Source of the DNA: a virus
Taxonomy: Duplodnaviria; Heunggongvirae; Uroviricota; Caudoviricetes
Virus record (IMG/VR): IMGVR_UViG_2563366969_000004
Coordinates: 1 to 40,824 of that record
DNA length: 40,824 bases
Strand: one strand, 5' to 3'
This document shows, one piece after another, positions 2,690 to 35,255 of this stretch. The notes under the pieces are model-generated. The model saw only the letters and a list, made by a program, of their open reading frames with translations, was not told the origin of the DNA and ran no database searches. Position numbers and translations under genes: made by a program. Numbering within the stretch: position 1 is the first letter of the stretch; every line of letters starts with the position of its first letter.

Positions 2690-3080
2690 CGTCTTTTCTC
2701 CCCGGAATTAACTCGCGTGGATTATCGGAACGGTGATAGAGCCATATACCAATACGCACAGCGACAATTGCTGACACGAATGCGCCTGCAGAGAAAACAA
2801 TCCCTTTTTCAAAAGAGTCCTGCGTGATGGTAGGGATCAGGCTGGCTATGCCGATAAGAATTGATGCTGCTGGTTTGTAAAAGAGAAGGCCGCAAAGAAA
2901 GCTGAGCATCGACAGGAGCACCCGGCGACGGATGGGGTACTCTACTGCAGAGGTAACAAAAATTACCGCCCCAGCCAAAGCCCCTAAAGCAACCTCCGGA
3001 GGGACACCTGCAATAACCGCAGCAAGAGAACCAAAACTAAGCAACTGATTTAATTGCTCACTTGTTACTTGAGCAGACAT
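2676..3080 (-). CDS. Holin candidate
   Basis: 134 aa, multiple hydrophobic helices, charged C-terminus; SD CAGGAG upstream; first gene of lysis cassette. Confidence 0.55.
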   Translation of the reverse strand: MSAQVTSEQLNQLLSFGSLAAVIAGVPPEVALGALAGAVIFVTSAVEYPIRRRVLLSMLSFLCGLLFYKPAASILIGIASLIPTITQDSFEKGIVFSAGAFVSAIVAVRIGIWLYHRSDNPRELIPGRKDDGNA

Positions 3081-3361
3081 ACTTTCTCCTGTTTACTATC
3101 TATAAGCCAGTCAATTATTGATGACTAAACCCGCATAGTAAACCATATATGAATCATTATTGTTCCGTATCATATATCTCAATAAAAGTACTAATGATTT
3201 TACAGAACGAGCCAGCAGAGTGGGGGCAGTTGTACAGGAACCATAGACTTAATTTTGTATTTAATAATGCTATGGTGTAATAAACCTGAACATGTATTTA
3301 AAATACGTACTGATTCATGATAGAATTCAAAGATAACTTTTCACAAACTCCGTTTTTGATA

Positions 3362-3388: not shown

Positions 3389-6300
3389 AACGTTCTTCCA
3401 GAGACTGAATCCGCTCTTTTATCTTATCCATTTCTCTGCGCTGCCATGCTGCCTCGATATAGAATAAGAGATCAGGTCTGACCCCCCATCTAGATCCTGC
3501 TGGCGTTATTTCAACGCGCTCAATGATGTCTTCCATTACCATCACTGGATTATCATCCTCATCAACAATGATGCTCCCGTCATTATCAGTCAGCGGCATT
3601 TCCCTTTGGCCAGTAATGACGTCATCATATACTGCGGGATAATCGTCATAGCAAAGAAAGGCATAGCGGCATGTTGTGCTTTCTTCTTCCATGAGTCCGT
3701 GAGAAATAAGAACATCACGAAGTTGCTGCGCGATTACACCATGATGTATCCTCGCCCCTTCTTCCCCCTTTATAGCGACAGCGTTCAGCCATTTATAAGC
3801 GATATACCTGACGTCACCCCAGGCATCCAGCAATGCTTCGTCAGGAGAGACCGGCTCTGTCTTTAATGTTCCGTCACTGGTAACCACAGGATTGGAGCCA
3901 AGATAAACTGTCGAGAACCTGTTTCCCGGACCACCAAGAGCATTTACATTATCAAGATAAGGTTTAACATCTCCGTTCTCAAAAAGATGTTCGAGTGCGT
4001 TATATACCGCGCGACGTGGAGTACTGCTTCCGGAACCATGCAACGTTATCATTGCACCATCTGCTGAAGACGTTGTTTCACCGCCGCTAACGATTAATCT
4101 CTGAGCGGTAACATCATCAGACGGTACTTTCTTCGCAATAATGGCGTAATTACCCTCAAGTTTGACTTCCGCGCGAACTTGTCCTGATGTACCTGCATGG
4201 ACAGTCAGTGACTGGACGGCAACATCATCTGTGAAATCAACGGGTACAGGAACCGTCCTCACGCCTGACGTCGACATAAAAGTAGGAAGCGTTCTGTTAG
4301 GAGTGGCTCCGTAGACAAAATCCCTTGAAACAAATTCTTCCTGTTTAATTTTCACCCTGAAACAATACAAATCAGCCGGGTGACCATCGTGAACATAAGG
4401 ATATTTTCTGTTGTTATCCCCTATGCTCCATGGGTTTAGAAAGTCTTCCCCACCGAAAATGTAGTACAGCCAGTTGTCTTTGATACAAACTGAACCAACA
4501 CCAACCGCAGAGTTAACTATTCCGCCCTGATAAATCTGATCAGTAACATTAACCCACTCTACATTATCCAGACTCCACTCATTGACGTTAACTCTGGTCA
4601 TAAATGTTCTTGGATAGTTTCCTGCATAACGGTTATCAGGTTCTCCTCCTTCCCACTCACCAAATGCGCGCTCACTGCCAAAAATAATCAGCTCATCGCC
4701 AACTTTGGCAAAAGGAAGGTTTGAGTGATGAACATTATTTGGGAAGCGAAGAGAATTCCATGATGTACCTAAATCAGAGCTTCTGTGCAATGAACTACCG
4801 GGTTGAGTACTTAATGTCCCCCTGGTCGTCAGATACAGAATGCCATCATAATATTTTACACATGGCTCAGATGCATTCGCCTCATATTCTGCAGGTATGC
4901 GTCTGCGAACAAAGCTACCAGGAGAACCGAAAGCATCAGAGAAATAGAGTATCCCAAGCTCGCGTGGACCAATATCACCATTATGGTAGCCAACAGCAAA
5001 ACTGTTATCGCTAATCGTCGCAAAACTGTGAATCTCAGTAACAGGAGTGCTTCCGTCAACAAAAGAAGGAATAGTTCCAAGACTGGTTTTTCTCCATGGT
5101 GACGAGTGAAATGATGTACCAAAACTCCAGTATCTACCCTCGTTATTCTGATCCACATCCTGGGTATTTTGCGTCGTAACTGTAAAAGTATTTTTATCAA
5201 TAACAGTAGTCACCGTCATATTCCCGGTAACACCTGTAACACCAGAGTTTGAGAAGTTGACAAAATCACCAGCAAATAATCCGTGATCAGTAATGCGAAT
5301 ATAAGCGACTTGCTGATTTGCTGCTTTCGTTATACCACCATAAACGCGAAGGCTGCGACTCATTGGGCGATCCCACAACTCTGCAACCTGCAGTTTATTT
5401 CCGCTCACGGTCCGCGTCTCAATTACAGCAAAAAGGCGATTTCTGACAACCCCCATACTCATGCAGTGATAGTTAACTGTGGGATAGTTTTCATGTAAAT
5501 CTGTAAGCCATTCCGGCGTTGTCCAGGTCTTCCCGTCATCTCCTGAGCGAACCCATGCAACATGGAGGTTATTTACACCATGGCGGTCTCCAGCCATAAA
5601 AGGCGCATAGATGACATTGTCATATACAAACGTTTTATCCTGCGTCCAGGCGTTGTACCACGGTGTATCTGTAATTTTAAATAACTCTCCCTGGATAAAA
5701 TCTTCAGAAGCATAAAAAAGAGGCTGGCCCGGTATTCTCTCAAATAAAAAACGAGCATTTTTAAATCGACTGACATCCGGAAGAGTTGATACTTTAAAAG
5801 TAAGCCCTAATCCGTCAATTTTATAACCTGGAGATGAGGCTTCAAGGCACGCGCTTATTGCAGTGGAATCGTCATTTATACCATCACCAACAGCTCCAAA
5901 ATCTTTGGGGCTAATAGCATCACGCATTTTATCCTGGAACGTTCGGTACACAGCCCCAGAACCATACTGAATAAACCAACCAAAACCACCAACAACCCCG
6001 GCGATTGCAGCATCGACATAATTACGCATTGAGCGATTATTTACAGCGTCCTGCTCAAATGATGGATCTGCAAGGTTAGAAATTTTGTTTTGCTTTGCAT
6101 CGTAATATTTTGCAAGCAAAGATGGTTTCATCAATGCACGTCTGAACCACCCAAAACATTGCTGGATCAGCATCGTCAGGTAGTCAAAGGCATCTTCATG
6201 CACTTCGGGGAAAAATTTTCCCTGATTGCGAAGGTCTGTCTCCTGCACTACATCAAGCACACGATCTATCGTAATTCGCCATCCAGTAGCAAGCGGAGAC

Positions 6301-6506: not shown

Positions 6507-6610
6507 GTTAAATCTCCAGATAGTCGCAGCACCCGTTGCGCCGCATATCTGGTTATTCTATTACCTGGAAAACCACATATGGATAGAAAGGCTGTAAATA
6601 CGAATAGATA

Positions 6611-6625
6611 TTACCTTTCAGGTAA
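6611..6625. promoter_or_regulatory. TTACC-N5-GGTAA palindrome (putative repressor operator), copy A
   Basis: ATTACCtttcaGGTAAT perfect inverted repeat upstream of small antirepressor-like gene. Confidence 0.5.
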
Positions 6626-6662
6626 TTTGCAAAACGTGCTGGATAGCAAACAAATTATTTGA

Positions 6663-6682
6663 TACTGTATAAATATACAGTT
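6663..6682. promoter_or_regulatory. LexA (SOS) box overlapping promoter of 6702..6959 gene
   Basis: TACTGTATAAATATACAGTT: CTGT-N8-ACAG with AT-rich spacer, near-consensus to enterobacterial SOS box TACTGTATATATATACAGTA; overlaps TATAAA -10-like hexamer. Confidence 0.65.
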
Positions 6683-6701: not shown

Positions 6702-6959
6702 ATGCAGCAGTATCACTATCCACTGGAAGACGGATTTACCGAAAGGATTCACACGCCGGGAGGCGTCAGGTCACTGGTGGAGGGATCGCACTTGATGAAA
6801 TTACTCCGGGATCTCGATAAGGATGGATTTAATGTCGATGGCCCACTTGCCGAACTGACTGCACTGATTAACTACGTCACCAGCTCACAGATGTCTATGC
6901 AGGATCTGCAAACACATCTCGACTATTGTGCCGAACAATTACGAAAACAAACCCGGTAA
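6702..6959 (+). CDS. Small protein (85 aa) homologous to C-terminal domain of the Bro-N protein at 8108..8818; candidate SOS-inducible antirepressor
   Basis: ATG at 6702 with SD GGAG 8 nt upstream (the six-frame ORF start at 6684 is TTG); roughly 40 percent identity by eye over about 70 aa to residues about 165-236 of the Bro-N protein; LexA box on its promoter. Confidence 0.6.
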   Translation: MQQYHYPLEDGFTERIHTPGGVRSLVEGSHLMKLLRDLDKDGFNVDGPLAELTALINYVTSSQMSMQDLQTHLDYCAEQLRKQTR

Positions 6960-6965
6960 ATTTAA

Positions 6966-6983
6966 AGGCCGCAAGAGCGGCCT
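6966..6983. terminator. Hairpin between convergent genes (terminator-like)
   Basis: AGGCCGC-aaga-GCGGCCT; same stem sequence recurs at 9642..9659. Confidence 0.4.
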
Positions 6984-7710
6984 ATCGTTTCGCTTTGTGC
7001 TCGTCCCAGCACGTTTTGCACCATGCCATTAAGCCGTCCGCATTTTGATTATTAGGGTAAAAGCTGGTCCGTTTTCTGCGGACATTACAAATTGGGCACC
7101 ACTTCATATGGCGTGTATTCTTTGGGCCATCGAGACACCTTGCACACCACTTAGTCAATCCATCTGGATTTTTTGACGATTTCCGGAATTTGTCATATGG
7201 AAGGTTTATTCTGCATCGCAAACACTGCTTGCGGCCACTTGAAACTCTGTTAGCTGATTCTTCTTTTGGCGGCGATACAGAAGGTATTCTTGCTGGCTCT
7301 GATACTGCCTGAGGTGCTTTTTTAGATGACTGAGACGATATGTCATCACCAGGGAATCTTCCATGATATGCCGGACGCGTTGACACTCCAGGTGGAAGCT
7401 CAGCTGTAAACGGCTTTGGCTGAATCAGTTGCCTCTCTTTTGCTAACTCCTGCTGTTTATAATATGTCTGGATTACCGCACTATCATAAGCAGGAGGTAC
7501 GGAAATATCAGGCGCGTTACCTCCAGTTTTTTGAAAATGAGTAGATGTGTGTTCTATCACCTGTGTACGACTAATCGTTACCTCCCCATCTTCGGTCTTT
7601 ATCGTTTTGTTCTGATTAACGACCGTACGATCAGAGATCTTAGTCTTGTTCTGGTTGATAACGTAAATAATCACCGCAACCACACCAACAACTATCCAGA
7701 AAACTTCCAT
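6982..7710 (-). CDS. Membrane-anchored protein with tandem C4 zinc-ribbon repeats, unknown function
   Basis: N-terminal TM helix followed by basic residues; C-terminal two repeats of C-x2-C-x21/22-(DGL..W)C-x2-C; SD GAGGAAAA upstream of ATG. Confidence 0.6.
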   Translation of the reverse strand: MEVFWIVVGVVAVIIYVINQNKTKISDRTVVNQNKTIKTEDGEVTISRTQVIEHTSTHFQKTGGNAPDISVPPAYDSAVIQTYYKQQELAKERQLIQPKPFTAELPPGVSTRPAYHGRFPGDDISSQSSKKAPQAVSEPARIPSVSPPKEESANRVSSGRKQCLRCRINLPYDKFRKSSKNPDGLTKWCARCLDGPKNTRHMKWCPICNVRRKRTSFYPNNQNADGLMAWCKTCWDEHKAKR

Positions 7711-7730
7711 TGCTTTTCCTCACAATAACA

Positions 7731-7745
7731 TTACCTTAAAGGTAA
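7731..7745. promoter_or_regulatory. TTACC-N5-GGTAA palindrome, copy B
   Basis: ATTACCttaaaGGTAAT, 20 bp upstream of start of 6982..7710 gene in divergent region. Confidence 0.5.
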
Positions 7746-7823
7746 TATCTTGCTTTCAGGTGATCAAGCGTTAAACGCAATCAACCAAATACGGTTGATT
7801 TTAATATTTCTTCGCGTTTATCA

Positions 7824-7838
7824 TTACCTTTGCGGTAA
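7824..7838. promoter_or_regulatory. TTACC-N5-GGTAA palindrome, copy B2
   Basis: TTACCtttgcGGTAA between divergent accessory genes, upstream of structured leader. Confidence 0.5.
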
Positions 7839-7929
7839 ATTTACATCGCACTCCTCTTGTGCCATAGTAATCGGGCACTGGCAAAATCCAGTGCCGGGAT
7901 TGGCGTCCCGGGTTACTAAGTGGCGCATA

Positions 7930-7951
7930 CCACGCCAGACGTGGTTTTTTT
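7930..7951 (+). terminator. Rho-independent terminator/attenuator upstream of Bro-N gene
   Basis: CCACG-ccaga-CGTGG followed by T7; preceded by two further hairpins (7874..7895, 7895..7911). Confidence 0.5.
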
Positions 7952-8107
7952 ATGCGTTAAGCACAGCTATATCCGAATTATGGTGGGCTGGGCAGGGGTC
8001 CGAAAGGACGCCGGTACCACTTAGGCCGGTACGCCAACCTTGTCCAGTTCACCACCAGTAATTGGCGTTGCGGTGGTGATTAAAATCACTAAGTGGAGAT
8101 AACCACC

Positions 8108-8818
8108 ATGGCTAATGCTCAAACTTCCATCTTCAAATTTGAATCTGTTAACCCTATCCGTTCCATCATTATCGATGGCCAACCATGGTTTGTAGCCCAA
8201 GACGTTTGTAGTGCGCTGCGTATCCAAAACGTCACCCAAGCACTTGAAAAACTGGATGATGATGAAAGGTCTATGTTCAACATAGGGCATGAACATCGTG
8301 CAATTTTTGACAGCCGAGTAAAAGAGATCAACATCATCTCCGAGTCAGGCCTCTACACACTGATCCTCAGCTGCCGCGACGCAGTGACACCAGGCACTAT
8401 CCCCTACCGCTTTCGTAAATGGGTTACAGGTGAGGTTCTTCCTCAGATCCGCCGCACCGGAAGTTACATAAAAAACTCGCTCCCGCAAGAAGAACGCATA
8501 AAGATGGTTGCCGACCAGGTAGCCAACGCCACGGCGTCAGCAGTAATGCAGGCGATGAAGATAGAGAACAAAACCTACAGTGCCCCACTGAAGCCCGGCT
8601 ACCGCAGCCTGATTCACTCGCCGTCTGGTGTTCTCGGCCTGACGGAGAACTCACTGCTGATGAATCTGTTGAACCAGTTACAGGAAGACGGGCACGACGT
8701 ATCGGGCGCGGCGGCGGAGCTGACCACCATGTTCTGCTACATCGTCGGTGTGAGCAAATGCCTGCGTGATATCCAGACCCACGCGGAGTACATCAACGAC
8801 AAGGCAGGGTTCTTCTGA
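8108..8818 (+). CDS. Bro-N domain antirepressor-like protein (Ant-like)
   Basis: N-terminal Bro-N/KilA-N-like motif (IFKFES...IRSIIIDGQPWFVAQDVCSALRI...) ; C-terminal domain homologous to 6702..6959 product; ATG 8108 with SD GGAG (the six-frame ORF starts at GTG 8093). Confidence 0.7.
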   Translation: MANAQTSIFKFESVNPIRSIIIDGQPWFVAQDVCSALRIQNVTQALEKLDDDERSMFNIGHEHRAIFDSRVKEINIISESGLYTLILSCRDAVTPGTIPYRFRKWVTGEVLPQIRRTGSYIKNSLPQEERIKMVADQVANATASAVMQAMKIENKTYSAPLKPGYRSLIHSPSGVLGLTENSLLMNLLNQLQEDGHDVSGAAAELTTMFCYIVGVSKCLRDIQTHAEYINDKAGFF

Positions 8819-8889
8819 CGGCGGCGGCACAGGGATGTGCCTTTAAATAATTCTGTACGATTGCAGACCGGGGGGTGAATAGAGTACTA

Positions 8890-8904
8890 TTACCTTACGG
8901 GTGA
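8890..8904. promoter_or_regulatory. Imperfect TTACC-N5-GGTGA palindrome overlapping candidate promoter
   Basis: TTGCAG (8861..8866) - 17 bp - GTACTA promoter-like elements immediately upstream; site overlaps -10/+1. Confidence 0.35.
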
Positions 8905-8992
8905 TCCATAGCGATTAGGCACCGATACAGGAGGAGCCCACATGAGAAAATTTGACGAGTACGAAGGCGTTTAACATTCGGATAGTTTAATG

Positions 8993-9033: not shown

Positions 9034-9573
9034 GTGTTAAGTGAAGAAATGCAATTTGCCATGGCTGTGGCTCAAATCGTAAGTGCAGTCGCGGTTTCGC
9101 TTGGCTTGTTCATAGCTATCGCTACTATTATTTATAATGTAAATACAGCGAGAAAAGTACACACTTCAGTATTCCTTGGTGAAAGCAGGTTTGATGTAGA
9201 TTATAAGAAAGGCCTATCTACTATGCGCCGCATTCACGAGTCGAACAAATCATTCCGCTCTTATATGTATCCAAGCAATGGGCAGGCTGATCTTACGGAT
9301 GAAGAAAAGATAGAGAAGAGAGAAATAATTTACTGTCTAGGTTTCTACGAACGCATGGCTGTGAGCGTGAAGCGGAAAACTTATGATGAGACCATGATTA
9401 AGGAAGTATTTTACAGCTCCGTTGTAAATAACTATCAGATTGCGCTACCTCTTATACAAGCTATTAGAGAAAAAGAAAACATAAACACATATTTTAAAGA
9501 ATATGAATGGTTGGCCACACGATGGAAGGATTGTCCATTGAAGGATAAATCCCCGTGGTACAAGTTTTGGTAA
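9034..9573 (+). CDS. Membrane-anchored hypothetical protein (179 aa); candidate superinfection-exclusion or abortive-infection factor
   Basis: N-terminal TM helix then about 140-aa soluble domain; AT-rich by eye relative to flanking phage genes; own terminator; opposite strand to late operon; start GTG 9034 (SD GGAGACAG) or ATG 9049. Confidence 0.6.
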   Translation: MLSEEMQFAMAVAQIVSAVAVSLGLFIAIATIIYNVNTARKVHTSVFLGESRFDVDYKKGLSTMRRIHESNKSFRSYMYPSNGQADLTDEEKIEKREIIYCLGFYERMAVSVKRKTYDETMIKEVFYSSVVNNYQIALPLIQAIREKENINTYFKEYEWLATRWKDCPLKDKSPWYKFW

Positions 9574-26566: not shown

Positions 26567-26643
26567 GTGGCATTAGCTCAGTTGGACAGAGCAACCGCCT
26601 TCTAAGCGGTTGGTCGCAGGTTCGAATCCTGCATGCCACGCCA
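26567..26643 (+). tRNA. tRNA-Arg (anticodon UCU), phage-encoded
   Basis: Cloverleaf folded by hand: acceptor GTGGCAT/ATGCCAC, D-arm GCTC/GAGC, anticodon stem ACCGC/GCGGT with loop CTTCTAA, T-arm GCAGG-TTCGAAT-CCTGC, discriminator G and encoded CCA. Confidence 0.9.
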
Positions 26644-30572: not shown

Positions 30573-31294
30573 TTAACCTCCTGCGGCGGTTCCGGTAGAG
30601 GCATCCAGTACAAGGCGTTCCCTAACCACGATAAAGTGCCGTCGCTCAACTCCACGTATTCCCCTTGTACCTGTCCTGCCATATACTCGCCGTGCTTTGA
30701 ATAAATTAAAATCCAATCATCTTGAGCGGGCATTCGCTCACTACAGCTTATCCAACCATCCGGAGTTACCGGATAGTTGCCAGCCTGAACAGTAGGCATA
30801 TCAGGACCTTTGCGAATCGCCCTGGCAAGATCGATTGGGTCGTCGTACAACCAGTCACCTGTTTGCGGATGATTGGCTTCTGCCAATTGTGCAGCCCACT
30901 CCAGGCCGTCTTTGTGTCCTTGCAGATAGTCCAGCGGTAACTCATCACTATTACTTACAGGTTCGGCTTCCAGTTCTGCAATGCGCTTCTCTGCAGCTTC
31001 CAGCTCAACACGCAGCTTCTCAAGCGTTAGAGCCATCTCCATGTTCTCTTCCAGCAGTTCAATCACATCAGGATCGCTATCATCAACTACTGTTATGCGC
31101 GATTTTTTGTAATGCTCGTCAGCATAAGTTCGTCCAGTTTTGAAGCATCCGTCGTCCTCCATGCCGGAACAGGCATAAACAACATGTGATCCAGATATGC
31201 GCTGCATTGACATTTCCTCGCCACAAACAGAGCATTTAGGCGCTGGTTTCGGTGAAAAACGTTCACGTAACGTCTGATAGTAAAGCTCGCTCAC
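30569..31294 (-). CDS. Ea22-like protein with N-terminal zinc ribbon and C-terminal DUF551-like domain
   Basis: GTG start at 31292..31294 (complement) preceded by perfect SD AAGGAGG and overlapping upstream stop (GTGA); CSVCG...C..C ribbon; coiled coil; C-terminal ...YWMPLPEPP typical of DUF551. Confidence 0.55.
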   Translation of the reverse strand: MSELYYQTLRERFSPKPAPKCSVCGEEMSMQRISGSHVVYACSGMEDDGCFKTGRTYADEHYKKSRITVVDDSDPDVIELLEENMEMALTLEKLRVELEAAEKRIAELEAEPVSNSDELPLDYLQGHKDGLEWAAQLAEANHPQTGDWLYDDPIDLARAIRKGPDMPTVQAGNYPVTPDGWISCSERMPAQDDWILIYSKHGEYMAGQVQGEYVELSDGTLSWLGNALYWMPLPEPPQEVN

Positions 31295-31839
31295 TGGCTG
31301 CCTCCTTTGCGAATCTGTTCCGCCCATTCTTCAAGGGATTTCTCCGCATATTCACCGGACAGGCCATCAATCGGGTGCGGTTCATTAGCCAACTCTTCTT
31401 TCGCTGACAGAATCATGCGTGTAACGTCGAAAACTTCACGTAAAGACTTATTGATAAATCCGTGGTTGAAAGCAGCAGCAAGACGGCTTGCGGTATAGTT
31501 AATCCCCTCGTTGCGAGCCTCCGCACGAATTTCAGCCAGAAAAGCATCGGTGGCTGGAGTTTCGCTGTGGTGCAGGGCATCGTTGATAATCATTGCAGCA
31601 ACTCCGGCCTGCCCTGCATCCGTGACCGACACATGCTCAAGAGTTACAGCCATTGCATGTTTCAGCCCCGCATTCTCCACAGCCAGCGCATTAGCACGCA
31701 CCAGTTGCACTTCCAGTTGCGTTGCCAAATCGCTGATCAGCTTTGCCACACTGCGCATATCAACGGCACCACATTCTGCTTTCAGTTCCGAAGCCATCTC
31801 ATGCCCGGCGGCAACTAACCCTTTGATATTACTTTCCAT
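31291..31839 (-). CDS. Hypothetical protein (nin-like region)
   Basis: 182 aa, acidic helical protein. Confidence 0.45.
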   Translation of the reverse strand: MESNIKGLVAAGHEMASELKAECGAVDMRSVAKLISDLATQLEVQLVRANALAVENAGLKHAMAVTLEHVSVTDAGQAGVAAMIINDALHHSETPATDAFLAEIRAEARNEGINYTASRLAAAFNHGFINKSLREVFDVTRMILSAKEELANEPHPIDGLSGEYAEKSLEEWAEQIRKGGSQ

Positions 31840-31900
31840 CTTTACCCTCGCTTATCCACATAACTTATTGATTACATTGATAACTAAAAAGATCGTCGAT

Positions 31901-32248
31901 TCAGAACTCTTCGATGTTCCAGCCACCACCTGCTTTCTTTGGTTTAACCGTTACCCCGATGATTCGGAACGGATACTGATCTGCGGCGACTTTGGTTTTC
32001 ACCCTGGCGTCGTCGGTCCAGAATCCCCCTTTCACTTCGTGCAGCTCCATCTCGCCGGTGGCGAGCATCACAGCAAAATCGGGCGTATAGAACGTGTTGT
32101 CAGCTAACCGCAGCTTGATACCCTCAAATCGATACCAGACGATTTCTCCTGCACGTTTACGCATCTCAAGGTGCTGGCAATACGCAGATTCTGTTTTGTT
32201 CATCTGGCCTGTTTTGAGTCGACCAAGAGCCTGTATCTGTTTTCTCAT
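31901..32248 (-). CDS. DUF1064-like phage protein
   Basis: 115 aa; pattern ...YTPDF...E.HEVKG...K.K resembles DUF1064 family; assignment from memory. Confidence 0.45.
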   Translation of the reverse strand: MRKQIQALGRLKTGQMNKTESAYCQHLEMRKRAGEIVWYRFEGIKLRLADNTFYTPDFAVMLATGEMELHEVKGGFWTDDARVKTKVAADQYPFRIIGVTVKPKKAGGGWNIEEF

Positions 32249-34598: not shown

Positions 34599-34600
34599 AT

Positions 34601-34670: not shown

Positions 34671-35255
34671 ATGAAAAGTATCCAGGACGTCCGCAGGCAA
34701 AATCTCAACGACTTGATCGACCGTGAATTCAATGGTGTTCAGACGCGGATGGCAGAAAAACTTGGAACTCAGGCAAATCTGGTAAACCGCTGGGCTCTTG
34801 GCAAGAAGGTTATCGGCGACCAGGTTGCGCGAAAAATTGAAGCTGCCGCCAATAAACCCCGTAACTGGCTTGATATCGATCGCTCGCTTTCTCAGGAAGG
34901 TTTTCAGCCTGTCGGCCCAAGCGACATTGGTCAGCTGGCGGCTCACAACCTGGAACGCTGGATGAGCGAAAGCCGCGACCTTTCAACACAGGGAAAACTT
35001 CACCGCGCATCCGGCGTCGCCCAGGTGACAATCAGCCGCCTGTTAAACAATGAGGTCAGCGTTTCCATTTCCACCCTGGAGAATGTTGCATCCGCATTCG
35101 GGCGTCACGGATATGAACTACTGATTCACCCGCACGACCCTGCGACTATCAACTATGACCGCTCACGCTACGCATTGTTACCCGAAACCGAGAAAGCAAA
35201 GATCGAAAGTTACATTGAATTTGTCATCAACCAGAACGAAAAAAGCAAACAATAA
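34671..35255 (+). CDS. CI-like prophage repressor with two HTH (XRE-type) segments, no S24 peptidase domain
   Basis: 194 aa; HTH-like QTRMAEKLGTQANLVNRWALGKK and SGVAQVTISRLLNNEVSVSISTLENVA; no Ser-Lys autocleavage module recognisable; no SD within 10 nt of ATG; strong terminator follows. Confidence 0.6.
   Translation: MKSIQDVRRQNLNDLIDREFNGVQTRMAEKLGTQANLVNRWALGKKVIGDQVARKIEAAANKPRNWLDIDRSLSQEGFQPVGPSDIGQLAAHNLERWMSESRDLSTQGKLHRASGVAQVTISRLLNNEVSVSISTLENVASAFGRHGYELLIHPHDPATINYDRSRYALLPETEKAKIESYIEFVINQNEKSKQ

Follow-up and report, generated by a model that had tools for sequence, protein, structure and literature searches.

For Salmonella phage SPC32H, Kim and Ryu are said to have found in 2013 that the repressor Rep stays uncleaved in the SOS response, that it is inactivated by the small antirepressor Ant and that the ant promoter overlaps a LexA site. 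Reportedly, the words by which the antisense RNA C4 acts were found by Citron and Schuster in 1990 to differ between the phages P1 and P7, and a 'Bro network' of domain-shuffled phage regulators with Bro-N or KilA-N domains was delineated by Iyer, Koonin and Aravind in 2002. The SPC32H Ant chain (5D50_E) was crystallised with its repressor Rep (PDB 5D50; the system is also represented by PDB 5D4Z and by Kim et al. 2016), and two reports describe Ant as a tetramer which binds the C-terminal tetramerisation domain of Rep, called "CAD", and breaks the Rep tetramer (PMC9986798; PMC9638917). In P1, Ant synthesis from the immI operon is blocked by the C4 RNA, the operon being repressed by C1 as well, and two separately controlled antirepressors, Coi and the C4-controlled Ant1/2, are present (PMC8198154). 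The Gifsy-1 prophage combines the LexA-controlled GfoA with the IsrK-controlled AnrP (PMC3121763; PMC4825925), whereby the short IsrK RNA acts in trans downstream of isrK and switches on translation of the antirepressor-like AnrP (PMC4825925). The locus considered here lies on a stretch of 40,824 nucleotides (nt) from a virus of the Caudoviricetes (IMG/VR record IMGVR_UViG_2563366969_000004, positions 1 to 40,824; this whole stretch is referred to as the window) and comprises two genes between positions 6,702 and 8,818, namely ant, encoding a protein of 85 amino acids, and a gene for a protein of 236 amino acids with an N-terminal Bro-N domain, referred to as the fusion. The reading to which a probability of about 0.7 is given here is that both products are antirepressors which use one and the same Rep-binding module and respond to different inputs, the small Ant being driven by the SOS response and the fusion being gated by C4 RNA in the manner of P1 immI.

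The original prediction took the small product for a stand-alone homologue of the C-terminal part of the Bro-N protein, a similarity that had been noticed by eye. Formal alignment of the two proteins by BLASTP gave 31 identities over 74 ungapped positions (42%, E = 9e-16), whereby residues 2-75 of the small protein correspond to residues 155-228 of the Bro-N protein. The homology was thus confirmed as significant and only its limits had to be moved, as the tail had been placed at residues 165-236 and starts about ten residues earlier. Both proteins match one and the same solved chain, 5D50_E ('Anti-repressor protein'), the small one at E = 4.1e-47 and residues 155-231 of the Bro-N protein at E = 1.2e-13. 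For both genes the assumed start codons are backed by homologues, which favour ATG 6702 over TTG 6684 and ATG 8108 over GTG 8093, and a third copy of the Ant domain was not found when the whole window was searched by tblastn with either domain, the next matches having E values of at least 0.2. The two Ant subfamilies, to which the small protein and the Bro-N protein tail belong, have 15 invariant positions in common; in phages of E. coli, Klebsiella and Enterobacter alike they remain separate from each other, with an identity of about 40%. A metagenome protein of 84 amino acids (P0137) is a chimera of both, its N-terminal half belonging to the small-Ant subfamily and its C-terminal half to the Bro-N-tail subfamily, which suggests recombination between the two paralogues.

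With 88% identity to the annotated ant product of SPC32H (tblastn), the small protein is, judged by its sequence, an orthologue of SPC32H Ant and a plain member of that family. The core of its LexA box, CTGTATAAATATACAG, is found 22 nt before the ant ATG, CTGT-N8-ACAG occurring only twice more in the window, and the equivalent SPC32H site, tACTGTATGTTTATACAGTg (ACTGTATGTTTATACAGT), has the same distance from the ant ATG there. The SOS box proposed earlier for the small gene was hence substantiated, as the CTGT-N8-ACAG motif at 6665-6680 is present and its position is kept in comparison with SPC32H, and it is assigned as the predicted LexA-controlled site for ant. A consensus scan for the ant promoter gave none on the plus strand near the LexA box, and the candidates selected there by eye were unconvincing. 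For the fusion gene no corresponding box was identified, since CTGT-N8-ACAG does not occur between 6681 and 22216; its leader holds isrK- and C4-type RNAs instead. That the two genes are under different control, i.e., a LexA box on the one hand and an antisense-RNA leader on the other, is a part of the original prediction that was fully retained.

The fusion protein belongs to the BRO family by virtue of its Bro-N domain (Pfam PF02498, residues 17-112, E = 1.6e-19, 70.7 bits compared with a gathering score of 25.6). Bro-N is the only domain found by Pfam in the 236-residue protein, whose Ant-like tail is covered by no Pfam or NCBIfam model, and the PHROGs 450 and 15539, by which the Ant-like domain is matched, are both labelled "unknown function". 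In the predicted structure of the full-length protein, Bro-N is modelled confidently and residues ~118-166, where the predicted local distance difference test (pLDDT) score is below 50, are a probable flexible linker. Both sequence and predicted fold assign the C-terminal domain as a paralogue of SPC32H Ant; being neither stand-alone nor LexA-controlled, it is classed as a paralogous domain and, strictly speaking, not as a member of the small-Ant gene family. Functional information comes from phage vB_EcoP_ZX5 (ZX5), where open reading frame (ORF) 4, annotated as Bro-N anti-repressor, is 81% identical overall to the window fusion and 100% identical over residues 91-236. When ZX5 ORF4 was overexpressed during infection, lysogens dropped from 10^9 to 10^6 per mL (~1000-fold) and repressor transcripts were cut by 75% (PMC9782041). 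The respective report names neither the small ORF nor SPC32H (PMC9782041), so that the paralogy went unnoticed in that study. By analogy with near-identical ZX5 ORF4, for which it is known, antirepressor activity would be expected for the window fusion, while direct Rep binding by the fusion, control of its promoter by Rep and the timing of its synthesis are inferred.

The leader of the fusion gene had been described as structured, and this description was given a molecular basis, as both an isrK-like RNA and a C4 antisense RNA score above the Rfam gathering thresholds and the predicted fold is more stable than that of shuffled sequences (z = -5.3). Transcription from the conserved promoter-like site is predicted to start at ~7875, which is the first base of the isrK match. 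The isrK-like RNA possesses an intrinsic terminator (7929-7945, followed by a T run) and holds a copy of both words targeted by C4, namely TTGGCGT (7900-7906) and CTAAGTGG (7916-7923). C4 itself carries the recognition words CCACTTAG (8017-8024, in a hairpin loop) and ACGCCAA (8031-8037), whose exact complements are present in the Bro-N ribosome-binding region as well as within isrK, whereby the second word of the target (b') overlaps the Bro-N Shine-Dalgarno sequence GGAG at 8095-8098. RNA pairing resembling this one is documented for P4 CI with seqA/seqC (PMC10111431). In related phages the words change in concert: TL-2011b and ZX5 have CCTTTTAG versus CTAAAAGG; a Klebsiella phage has CCGTTTAG, which faces CTAAACGG in isrK and, with one G-U pair, CTAAGCGG at the ribosome-binding site; and Enterobacter phage Tyrion has CCTTTGTAG versus CTACAAAGG together with AGACCAA versus TTGGTCT. 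This three-way covariation between C4, isrK and the ribosome-binding site in four phages speaks strongly for genuine RNA pairing. Scores above the Rfam thresholds for isrK and C4 were obtained for the window and five related phages, and both RNAs are absent from SPC32H, which likewise is without the fusion gene. A coupled upstream ORF was not identified, as no ORF of at least 40 amino acids ends at the Bro-N start. By eye, a 20-codon ORF starting with TTG (8040-8102) was seen to span the C4 3' end and to stop 5 nt before the Bro-N ATG; a 38-residue 'ash family' ORF annotated in ZX5 and orf45 of Gifsy-1 occupy the same place. This small ORF may serve translational coupling or may be meaningless.

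The presumed common target of both antirepressors is the product of rep, as suggested by the co-occurrence of ant and rep in every phage record with ant within the phage collection. While the original prediction had spoken of a CI-like repressor, the full-length match to chain 5D50_A identifies a non-cleavable repressor of the SPC32H Rep type, which is ~43% identical to SPC32H Rep and 99.5% identical to ZX5 Rep. A stretch of the sequence (Q/A)NLVNRW was seen by eye to be conserved between window Rep and SPC32H Rep and may be the DNA-recognition helix. The palindrome ATTACC-N5-GGTAAT, when allowing for up to two mismatches, occurs at 15 sites in the window compared with 1.16 expected, i.e., it is 13-fold over-represented. 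SPC32H has this palindrome in the corresponding position upstream of its own ant, although the two Rep proteins share only ~43% identity, and a comparison of the site next to the promoter of the fusion operon in five phages revealed invariant half-sites and a variable 5-nt centre. Operator-like palindromes also flank rep, namely at 34600, 35312 and 35374; copies are located between rep and a divergent cro-like gene, and two more are arranged around a TTGACA/CATAAT promoter just downstream of rep. Enrichment and position at the promoters of the immunity region indicate that ATTACC-N5-GGTAAT is probably the Rep operator. If this holds true for the palindrome at 7823, the fusion operon would be under the control of both Rep and C4, as is the case for P1 immI.

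The distribution of the module was followed with an Ant-domain profile, which was searched against 1.84 billion cluster representatives, subsequent Pfam scans yielding the domain architectures. Only 67 of these representatives matched at E <= 0.001, and the Ant domain is hence delimited by this search as a narrow enterobacterial family. It was found stand-alone, in proteins of 80-130 amino acids, or C-terminal behind Bro-N, AntA, Phage_pRha or ORF6N. Word-indexed homologue searches with queries of 85 and 87 amino acids had given almost only short proteins and a correspondingly biased picture of the architectures. A scan of IMG/VR yielded 80 loci in which the small Ant and its window counterpart share at least 99% identity. 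The second domain type was detected by tblastn in 72 of them, six have the small Ant alone within 4 kb downstream and two were too short to judge; a LexA box was present in all loci with upstream sequence. Via the complement of each word in the downstream initiation region, four C4 word classes were distinguished among the 80 loci: CCTTTGTAG in 34, CCACTTAG in 18, CCTTTTAG in 13 and CTACTAG in 3. This anchor search missed C4 in ten loci, four of which contain the second domain according to tblastn; of four such loci that were rechecked with Rfam, two gave C4/isrK. The protein encoded behind C4 possesses one of at least four Bro-N alleles (228, 230, 231 and 236 amino acids) or an AntA domain (216-218 amino acids), and near-identity sets in from about "YSAPLKPGYRS" onward, which is the exact start of the homology to small Ant. 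Within the three loci of the CTACTAG class (about 4340-5790) C4 is followed by an unrelated gene for 168 amino acids, whose product gave no Pfam match, and an ORF of its own, ~450 nt further on, encodes the Ant-like domain. These comparisons portray the C4 region together with the N-terminal domain as an exchangeable cassette and the Ant-like domain as the constant part, a pattern that would be expected if the domain is matched to the Rep of the respective phage. From the Salmonella members SPC32H, SPN1S and epsilon15 the whole isrK/C4/fusion module is absent.

Further copies of the domain and further antirepressor modules were encountered in relatives. TL-2011b also has a P22-type arc-ant-sar immI module (31060-32244 of the record; Rfam sar with 44.8 bits, 7425-7492 of the compared stretch), which next to the small Ant and the C4-controlled fusion amounts to three antirepressor systems in this phage, and both TL-2011b and HEMP4 gave a third tblastn match to the Ant domain. 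Outside the ant locus, stand-alone copies of the Bro-N-tail type with 95-97 amino acids occur in three Klebsiella genomes (3001-3288 of the stretches) and in one E. coli genome (3001-3294). One Klebsiella copy has a HicAB pair and an AlpA-like gene as neighbours, with a tetrahydrofolate dehydrogenase/cyclohydrolase gene (folD by its Pfam domains) nearby, and may be a satellite or a remnant. The E. coli copy resides between an MT-A70 methylase and the integrase of a prophage that adjoins a GMP-synthase-like gene (guaA, judged by Pfam domains).

Between 6.5 and 9.0 kb the window is 92-98% identical to the E. coli epsilon15-like podophages TL-2011b, HEMP4, vB_EcoP_ZX5 and phiV10 (Uetakevirus), and it looks like a nearly complete temperate E. 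coli phage of the epsilon15 type, similar to phiV10 and ZX5. In these relatives the tailspike gene (minus strand) is followed, according to the annotation, by a small "hypothetical protein", a stretch without annotated genes and the Bro-N "anti-repressor" or "anti-immunity protein". The hairpin which starts 7 nt past the ant stop codon was called terminator-like on the minus strand only, for the convergent 242-residue gene, and, judged by this position, likely terminates ant on the plus strand as well. The convergent 242-residue gene, which gave weak EndoVII/HNH/Stc1 matches, is present in some relatives, where C4 follows ~1.3 kb after ant, and absent in others, where the distance is ~0.47 kb; it is regarded as having been inserted between ant and the isrK/C4 operon, and as standing outside the switch. 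A DUF4760 gene (Pfam E = 1.6e-30) follows the Bro-N gene and is preceded by an operator-like palindrome (8889-8905); TL-2011b has a YafO-type toxin module in its place. The positions of all features are compiled in Table 1.

Table 1. Features of the two-antirepressor locus and of the remaining window, in window coordinates
Feature	Position	Strand	Evidence or remark
ATTACC-N5-GGTAAT sites (17 nt; candidate Rep operators)	6610, 7730, 7823, 8889, 26229, 29374, 29392, 32251, 32313, 34215, 34600, 35312, 35374		first positions
Candidate Rep operator 1, ATTACCTTTCAGGTAAT	6610..6626		perfect palindrome; upstream of ant promoter region
LexA (SOS) box, TACTGTATAAATATACAGTT	6663..6682	+	core CTGT-N8-ACAG, CTGTATAAATATACAG, at 6665-6680
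ant, stand-alone antirepressor (85 amino acids)	6702..6959	+	5D50_E match over residues 2-84 of 85; PHROG 450
GC-rich hairpin	6966..6983		between ant and the convergent 242-residue gene; terminator-like call on minus strand only
Gene for 242 amino acids	6982..7710	-	N-terminal hydrophobic segment, two Zn-ribbon/endonuclease-VII-like motifs; PHROG 6762 (unknown function)
Candidate Rep operator 2, ATTACCTTAAAGGTAAT	7730..7746		motif scan
Candidate Rep operator 3, ATTACCTTTGCGGTAAA	7823..7839		abuts -35 hexamer of the isrK/C4/Bro-N operon
Promoter-like site, TTTACA, 17-nt spacer, TG-CATAGT	7840..7868	+	conserved in five phages
isrK-like RNA	7875..7951	+	Rfam RF01394, 67.7 bits (gathering score 50)
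C4 antisense RNA	7976..8059	+	Rfam RF01695, 66 bits (gathering score 45)
C4 target, Bro-N translation-initiation region	8062..8098	+	a' TTGGCGT at 8062-8068, b' CTAAGTGG at 8089-8096
Fusion, putative second antirepressor (236 amino acids)	8108..8818	+	Bro-N residues 17-112 (nt 8156-8443); Ant-like residues 155-231 (nt 8570-8800)
DUF4760 gene	9034..9573		follows the Bro-N gene
tRNA-Arg gene (anticodon tct)	26567..26643		intergenic, mid-window
rep, SPC32H-Rep-type repressor (194 amino acids)	34671..35255	+	5D50_A 'Repressor' match, E = 3.5e-42, full length

According to the two-antirepressor reading, LexA bound to its box would hold ant off until DNA damage causes Ant to be made, and the small Ant would then bind the C-terminal tetramerisation or Ant-binding domain of the non-cleavable Rep and break Rep tetramers off their operators. 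For the window this role of small Ant is inferred because of its 88% identity to SPC32H Ant, the conserved LexA box and the presence of the Rep homologue. The fusion operon would be transcribed from the promoter abutted by the operator-like palindrome, through the isrK-like attenuator and C4, whereby C4 is proposed to pair by its two words with the Bro-N initiation region, so that the lysogen keeps the fusion untranslated. The isrK-like transcript, which has the same target words, would compete for C4 and titrate it, as IsrK does in Gifsy-1. The fusion would thus be made independently of the SOS response whenever the operon is newly transcribed without matching C4, i.e., early in infection or after removal of Rep, and it might at that point add to the inactivation of Rep, or else neutralise Rep in a resident relative whose C4 belongs to another class.

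Several points weigh against this reading. The ZX5 experiment was an overexpression of a GST fusion (glutathione S-transferase) in which the two domains were not separated, and with only 42% identity between the paralogues the Rep interface of the fused domain could have diverged. Were Rep to fully repress the isrK/C4 promoter in the lysogen, little C4 RNA would be made. Furthermore the fusion gene is dispensable, as it is missing in SPC32H, in epsilon15 and in 6 of 78 informative related loci, and frameshifted in phiV10. As the module is absent in the Salmonella members and the phiV10 gene is frameshifted, the second antirepressor is, on these genome comparisons, accessory. In phiV10 (3773-4452 of the compared stretch) the frameshift of the "anti-immunity" gene lies inside the Ant-like domain and the gene is annotated as p23 (194 amino acids) plus a p22 of 29 amino acids; this type phage is probably without a working second antirepressor.

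The original prediction had left open whether two antirepressors share one repressor-binding fold or whether the genes form a dominant-negative pair. The former is sustained by the orthology of small Ant, the paralogous tail and the ZX5 phenotype, while nothing was found that supports the latter. In such a dominant-negative or modulatory pair the fusion would co-assemble with small Ant, and mixed oligomers would poison, buffer or redirect it and set the induction threshold, a scenario made structurally conceivable by the reported tetrameric state of Ant (PMC9638917), by the 15 invariant positions common to the paralogues and by the natural chimera P0137, according to which the halves are compatible. 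It is nevertheless judged quite unlikely, as the near-identical ZX5 protein pushed towards lysis and not towards lysogeny when overexpressed, the subfamilies stay distinct (~40%) across the phages of three host genera and the fusion is under C4, a classical anti-immunity circuit. The distance between the paralogues (only 42% identity) might also mean that the fused domain kept the fold and changed its target, acting solely in inter-prophage cross-talk on the Rep of heteroimmune epsilon15-like prophages or on another host or phage protein. A precedent is FsoA of Fels-1, which acts on foreign repressors, has no role in induction of its own prophage and is controlled by the Fels-1 repressor and not by LexA (PMC3121763), and stand-alone copies of the second subfamily do occur outside complete Uetakevirus genomes, in Klebsiella beside AlpA and HicAB. 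Against this, ZX5 ORF4 affected the lysogeny of ZX5 itself, whose Rep is 99.5% identical to that of the window, and the fused domain is near-invariant in phages with the same Rep while its surroundings are swapped, so that a different target is considered rather improbable.

Very improbable is the view that the Bro-N protein acts chiefly through its Bro-N domain, as a DNA-binding regulator or a host-takeover factor, with the Ant-like tail as mere oligomerisation module that takes no part in repressor control. Bro-N is modelled confidently and resembles the DNA-binding Dachshund/SKI domain, and most BRO-family proteins are without established function; yet it is the N-terminal part that is interchangeable (four Bro-N alleles, AntA, an unrelated gene in three loci) and the Ant-like part that is constant, and an antirepressor would be expected to give just the phenotype seen with ZX5. 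None of these three alternatives is favoured by the ZX5 phenotype and the pattern of constant tail and variable head. Building on the two-antirepressor reading, a tentative extension, which is possible though less probable than not, sees the cassette of isrK, C4 and N-terminal domain as a second, RNA-based immunity layer of the epsilon15-like phages, comparable to immI in P1 and P7. Phages that agree in Rep and in small Ant are distributed over at least four C4 classes. Within this extension, a superinfecting phage of another C4 class would translate its Bro-N::Ant protein, neutralise the resident Rep by means of the shared Ant-like domain, escape immunity and induce the resident prophage, and the SPC32H-Ant fold would be a portable repressor-binding 'warhead' that was coupled repeatedly to Bro-N, AntA, Rha and ORF6N. 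If true, these enigmatic N-terminal domains would gain a testable accessory role.

As for the wider meaning of the assignment, thousands of enterobacterial entries named "BRO-like protein" or "anti-repressor" would gain a mechanism-level annotation for their C-terminal 80 residues, the tail domain being a paralogue of the one small antirepressor with a solved repressor complex and having no coverage by Pfam, NCBIfam or a named PHROG. The two-antirepressor reading predicts that two proteins, one responding to DNA damage and the other to RNA-based immunity, attack Rep at a single surface, its C-terminal tetramerisation domain, and such a dual-input lysis switch is testable in small, tractable phages (ZX5, phiV10 and relatives). 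The natural swaps of the N-terminal part on a constant effector could be used to find out what is contributed by Bro-N and AntA domains, which is a long-standing question. As Shiga toxin-producing and avian pathogenic E. coli (STEC, APEC) are the lysogenised hosts and biocontrol or reporter use is considered, induction and superinfection matter in practice.

All parts of the locus are known kinds, and it is the paralogous pairing and the domain assignment that appear undescribed. In the databases and literature searched, to which it should be added that the primary SPC32H papers may list fused homologues, no description was found of a Bro-N, AntA, Rha or ORF6N tail as paralogue of SPC32H Ant, of one phage with both Ant versions under LexA and C4 control, or of C4 classes and N-terminal domains shuffled on a constant effector domain. 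The earlier statement that no described example has this arrangement is hence too broad in so far as separate dual antirepressors are known from P1 and Gifsy-1, and it holds in so far as the shared, homologous effector domain sets this locus apart. One of the closest described systems is SPC32H Ant-Rep, with which the window shares the genus, a small Ant of 88% identity, the position of the LexA box, the palindrome upstream of ant, a Rep homologue and the gene neighbourhood, i.e., a tailspike on the opposite strand followed by ant. SPC32H differs in that it possesses the small Ant only, without isrK/C4 and Bro-N fusion between ant and the membrane-protein gene. The immI region of P1 and P7 (c4-icd-ant1/2) is alike in that C4 resides in the leader and pairs by two short words with the ribosome-binding region, its specificity varies between otherwise homoimmune relatives and a second small antirepressor is encoded elsewhere in the genome. 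The repressor operator at the promoter of the antirepressor operon would have its candidate counterpart in the window palindrome ATTACCTTTGCGGTAAA. In contrast to P1/P7, the window is without a clear icd-like coupled ORF and C4 would act on the antirepressor's own ribosome-binding site, and the antirepressor is composed of Bro-N and an SPC32H-Ant-like domain where P1 has Ant1/2. The small protein of the window is a LexA-controlled paralogue of its large partner, which sets the pair apart from Ant and the second C1 inactivator Coi in P1.

With isrK-orf45-anrP of Gifsy-1 the locus shares an isrK with a leaky (read-through) terminator upstream of an antirepressor-like gene as well as a separate SOS-controlled small antirepressor in the same prophage. 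The proteins themselves are different: BLASTP detected no similarity between AnrP (STM2616) and the window Bro-N protein (E = 23), and AnrP and GfoA are not detectably related (E = 8.2), so that the two Gifsy-1 antirepressors are unrelated while those of the window are homologous, and the window has no ATGA-coupled orf45. Within the Bro network (PMC10111431) the fusion fits the scheme of an N-terminal Bro-N, AntA, Rha or ORF6N domain joined to a variable C-terminal module, with C4 and isrK in the same zone. Its C-terminal module differs in not being one of the catalogued Pfam partners (ANT/KilAC, P22_AR_C) and, unlike most partners, it has a stand-alone form whose complex with its target has been solved.

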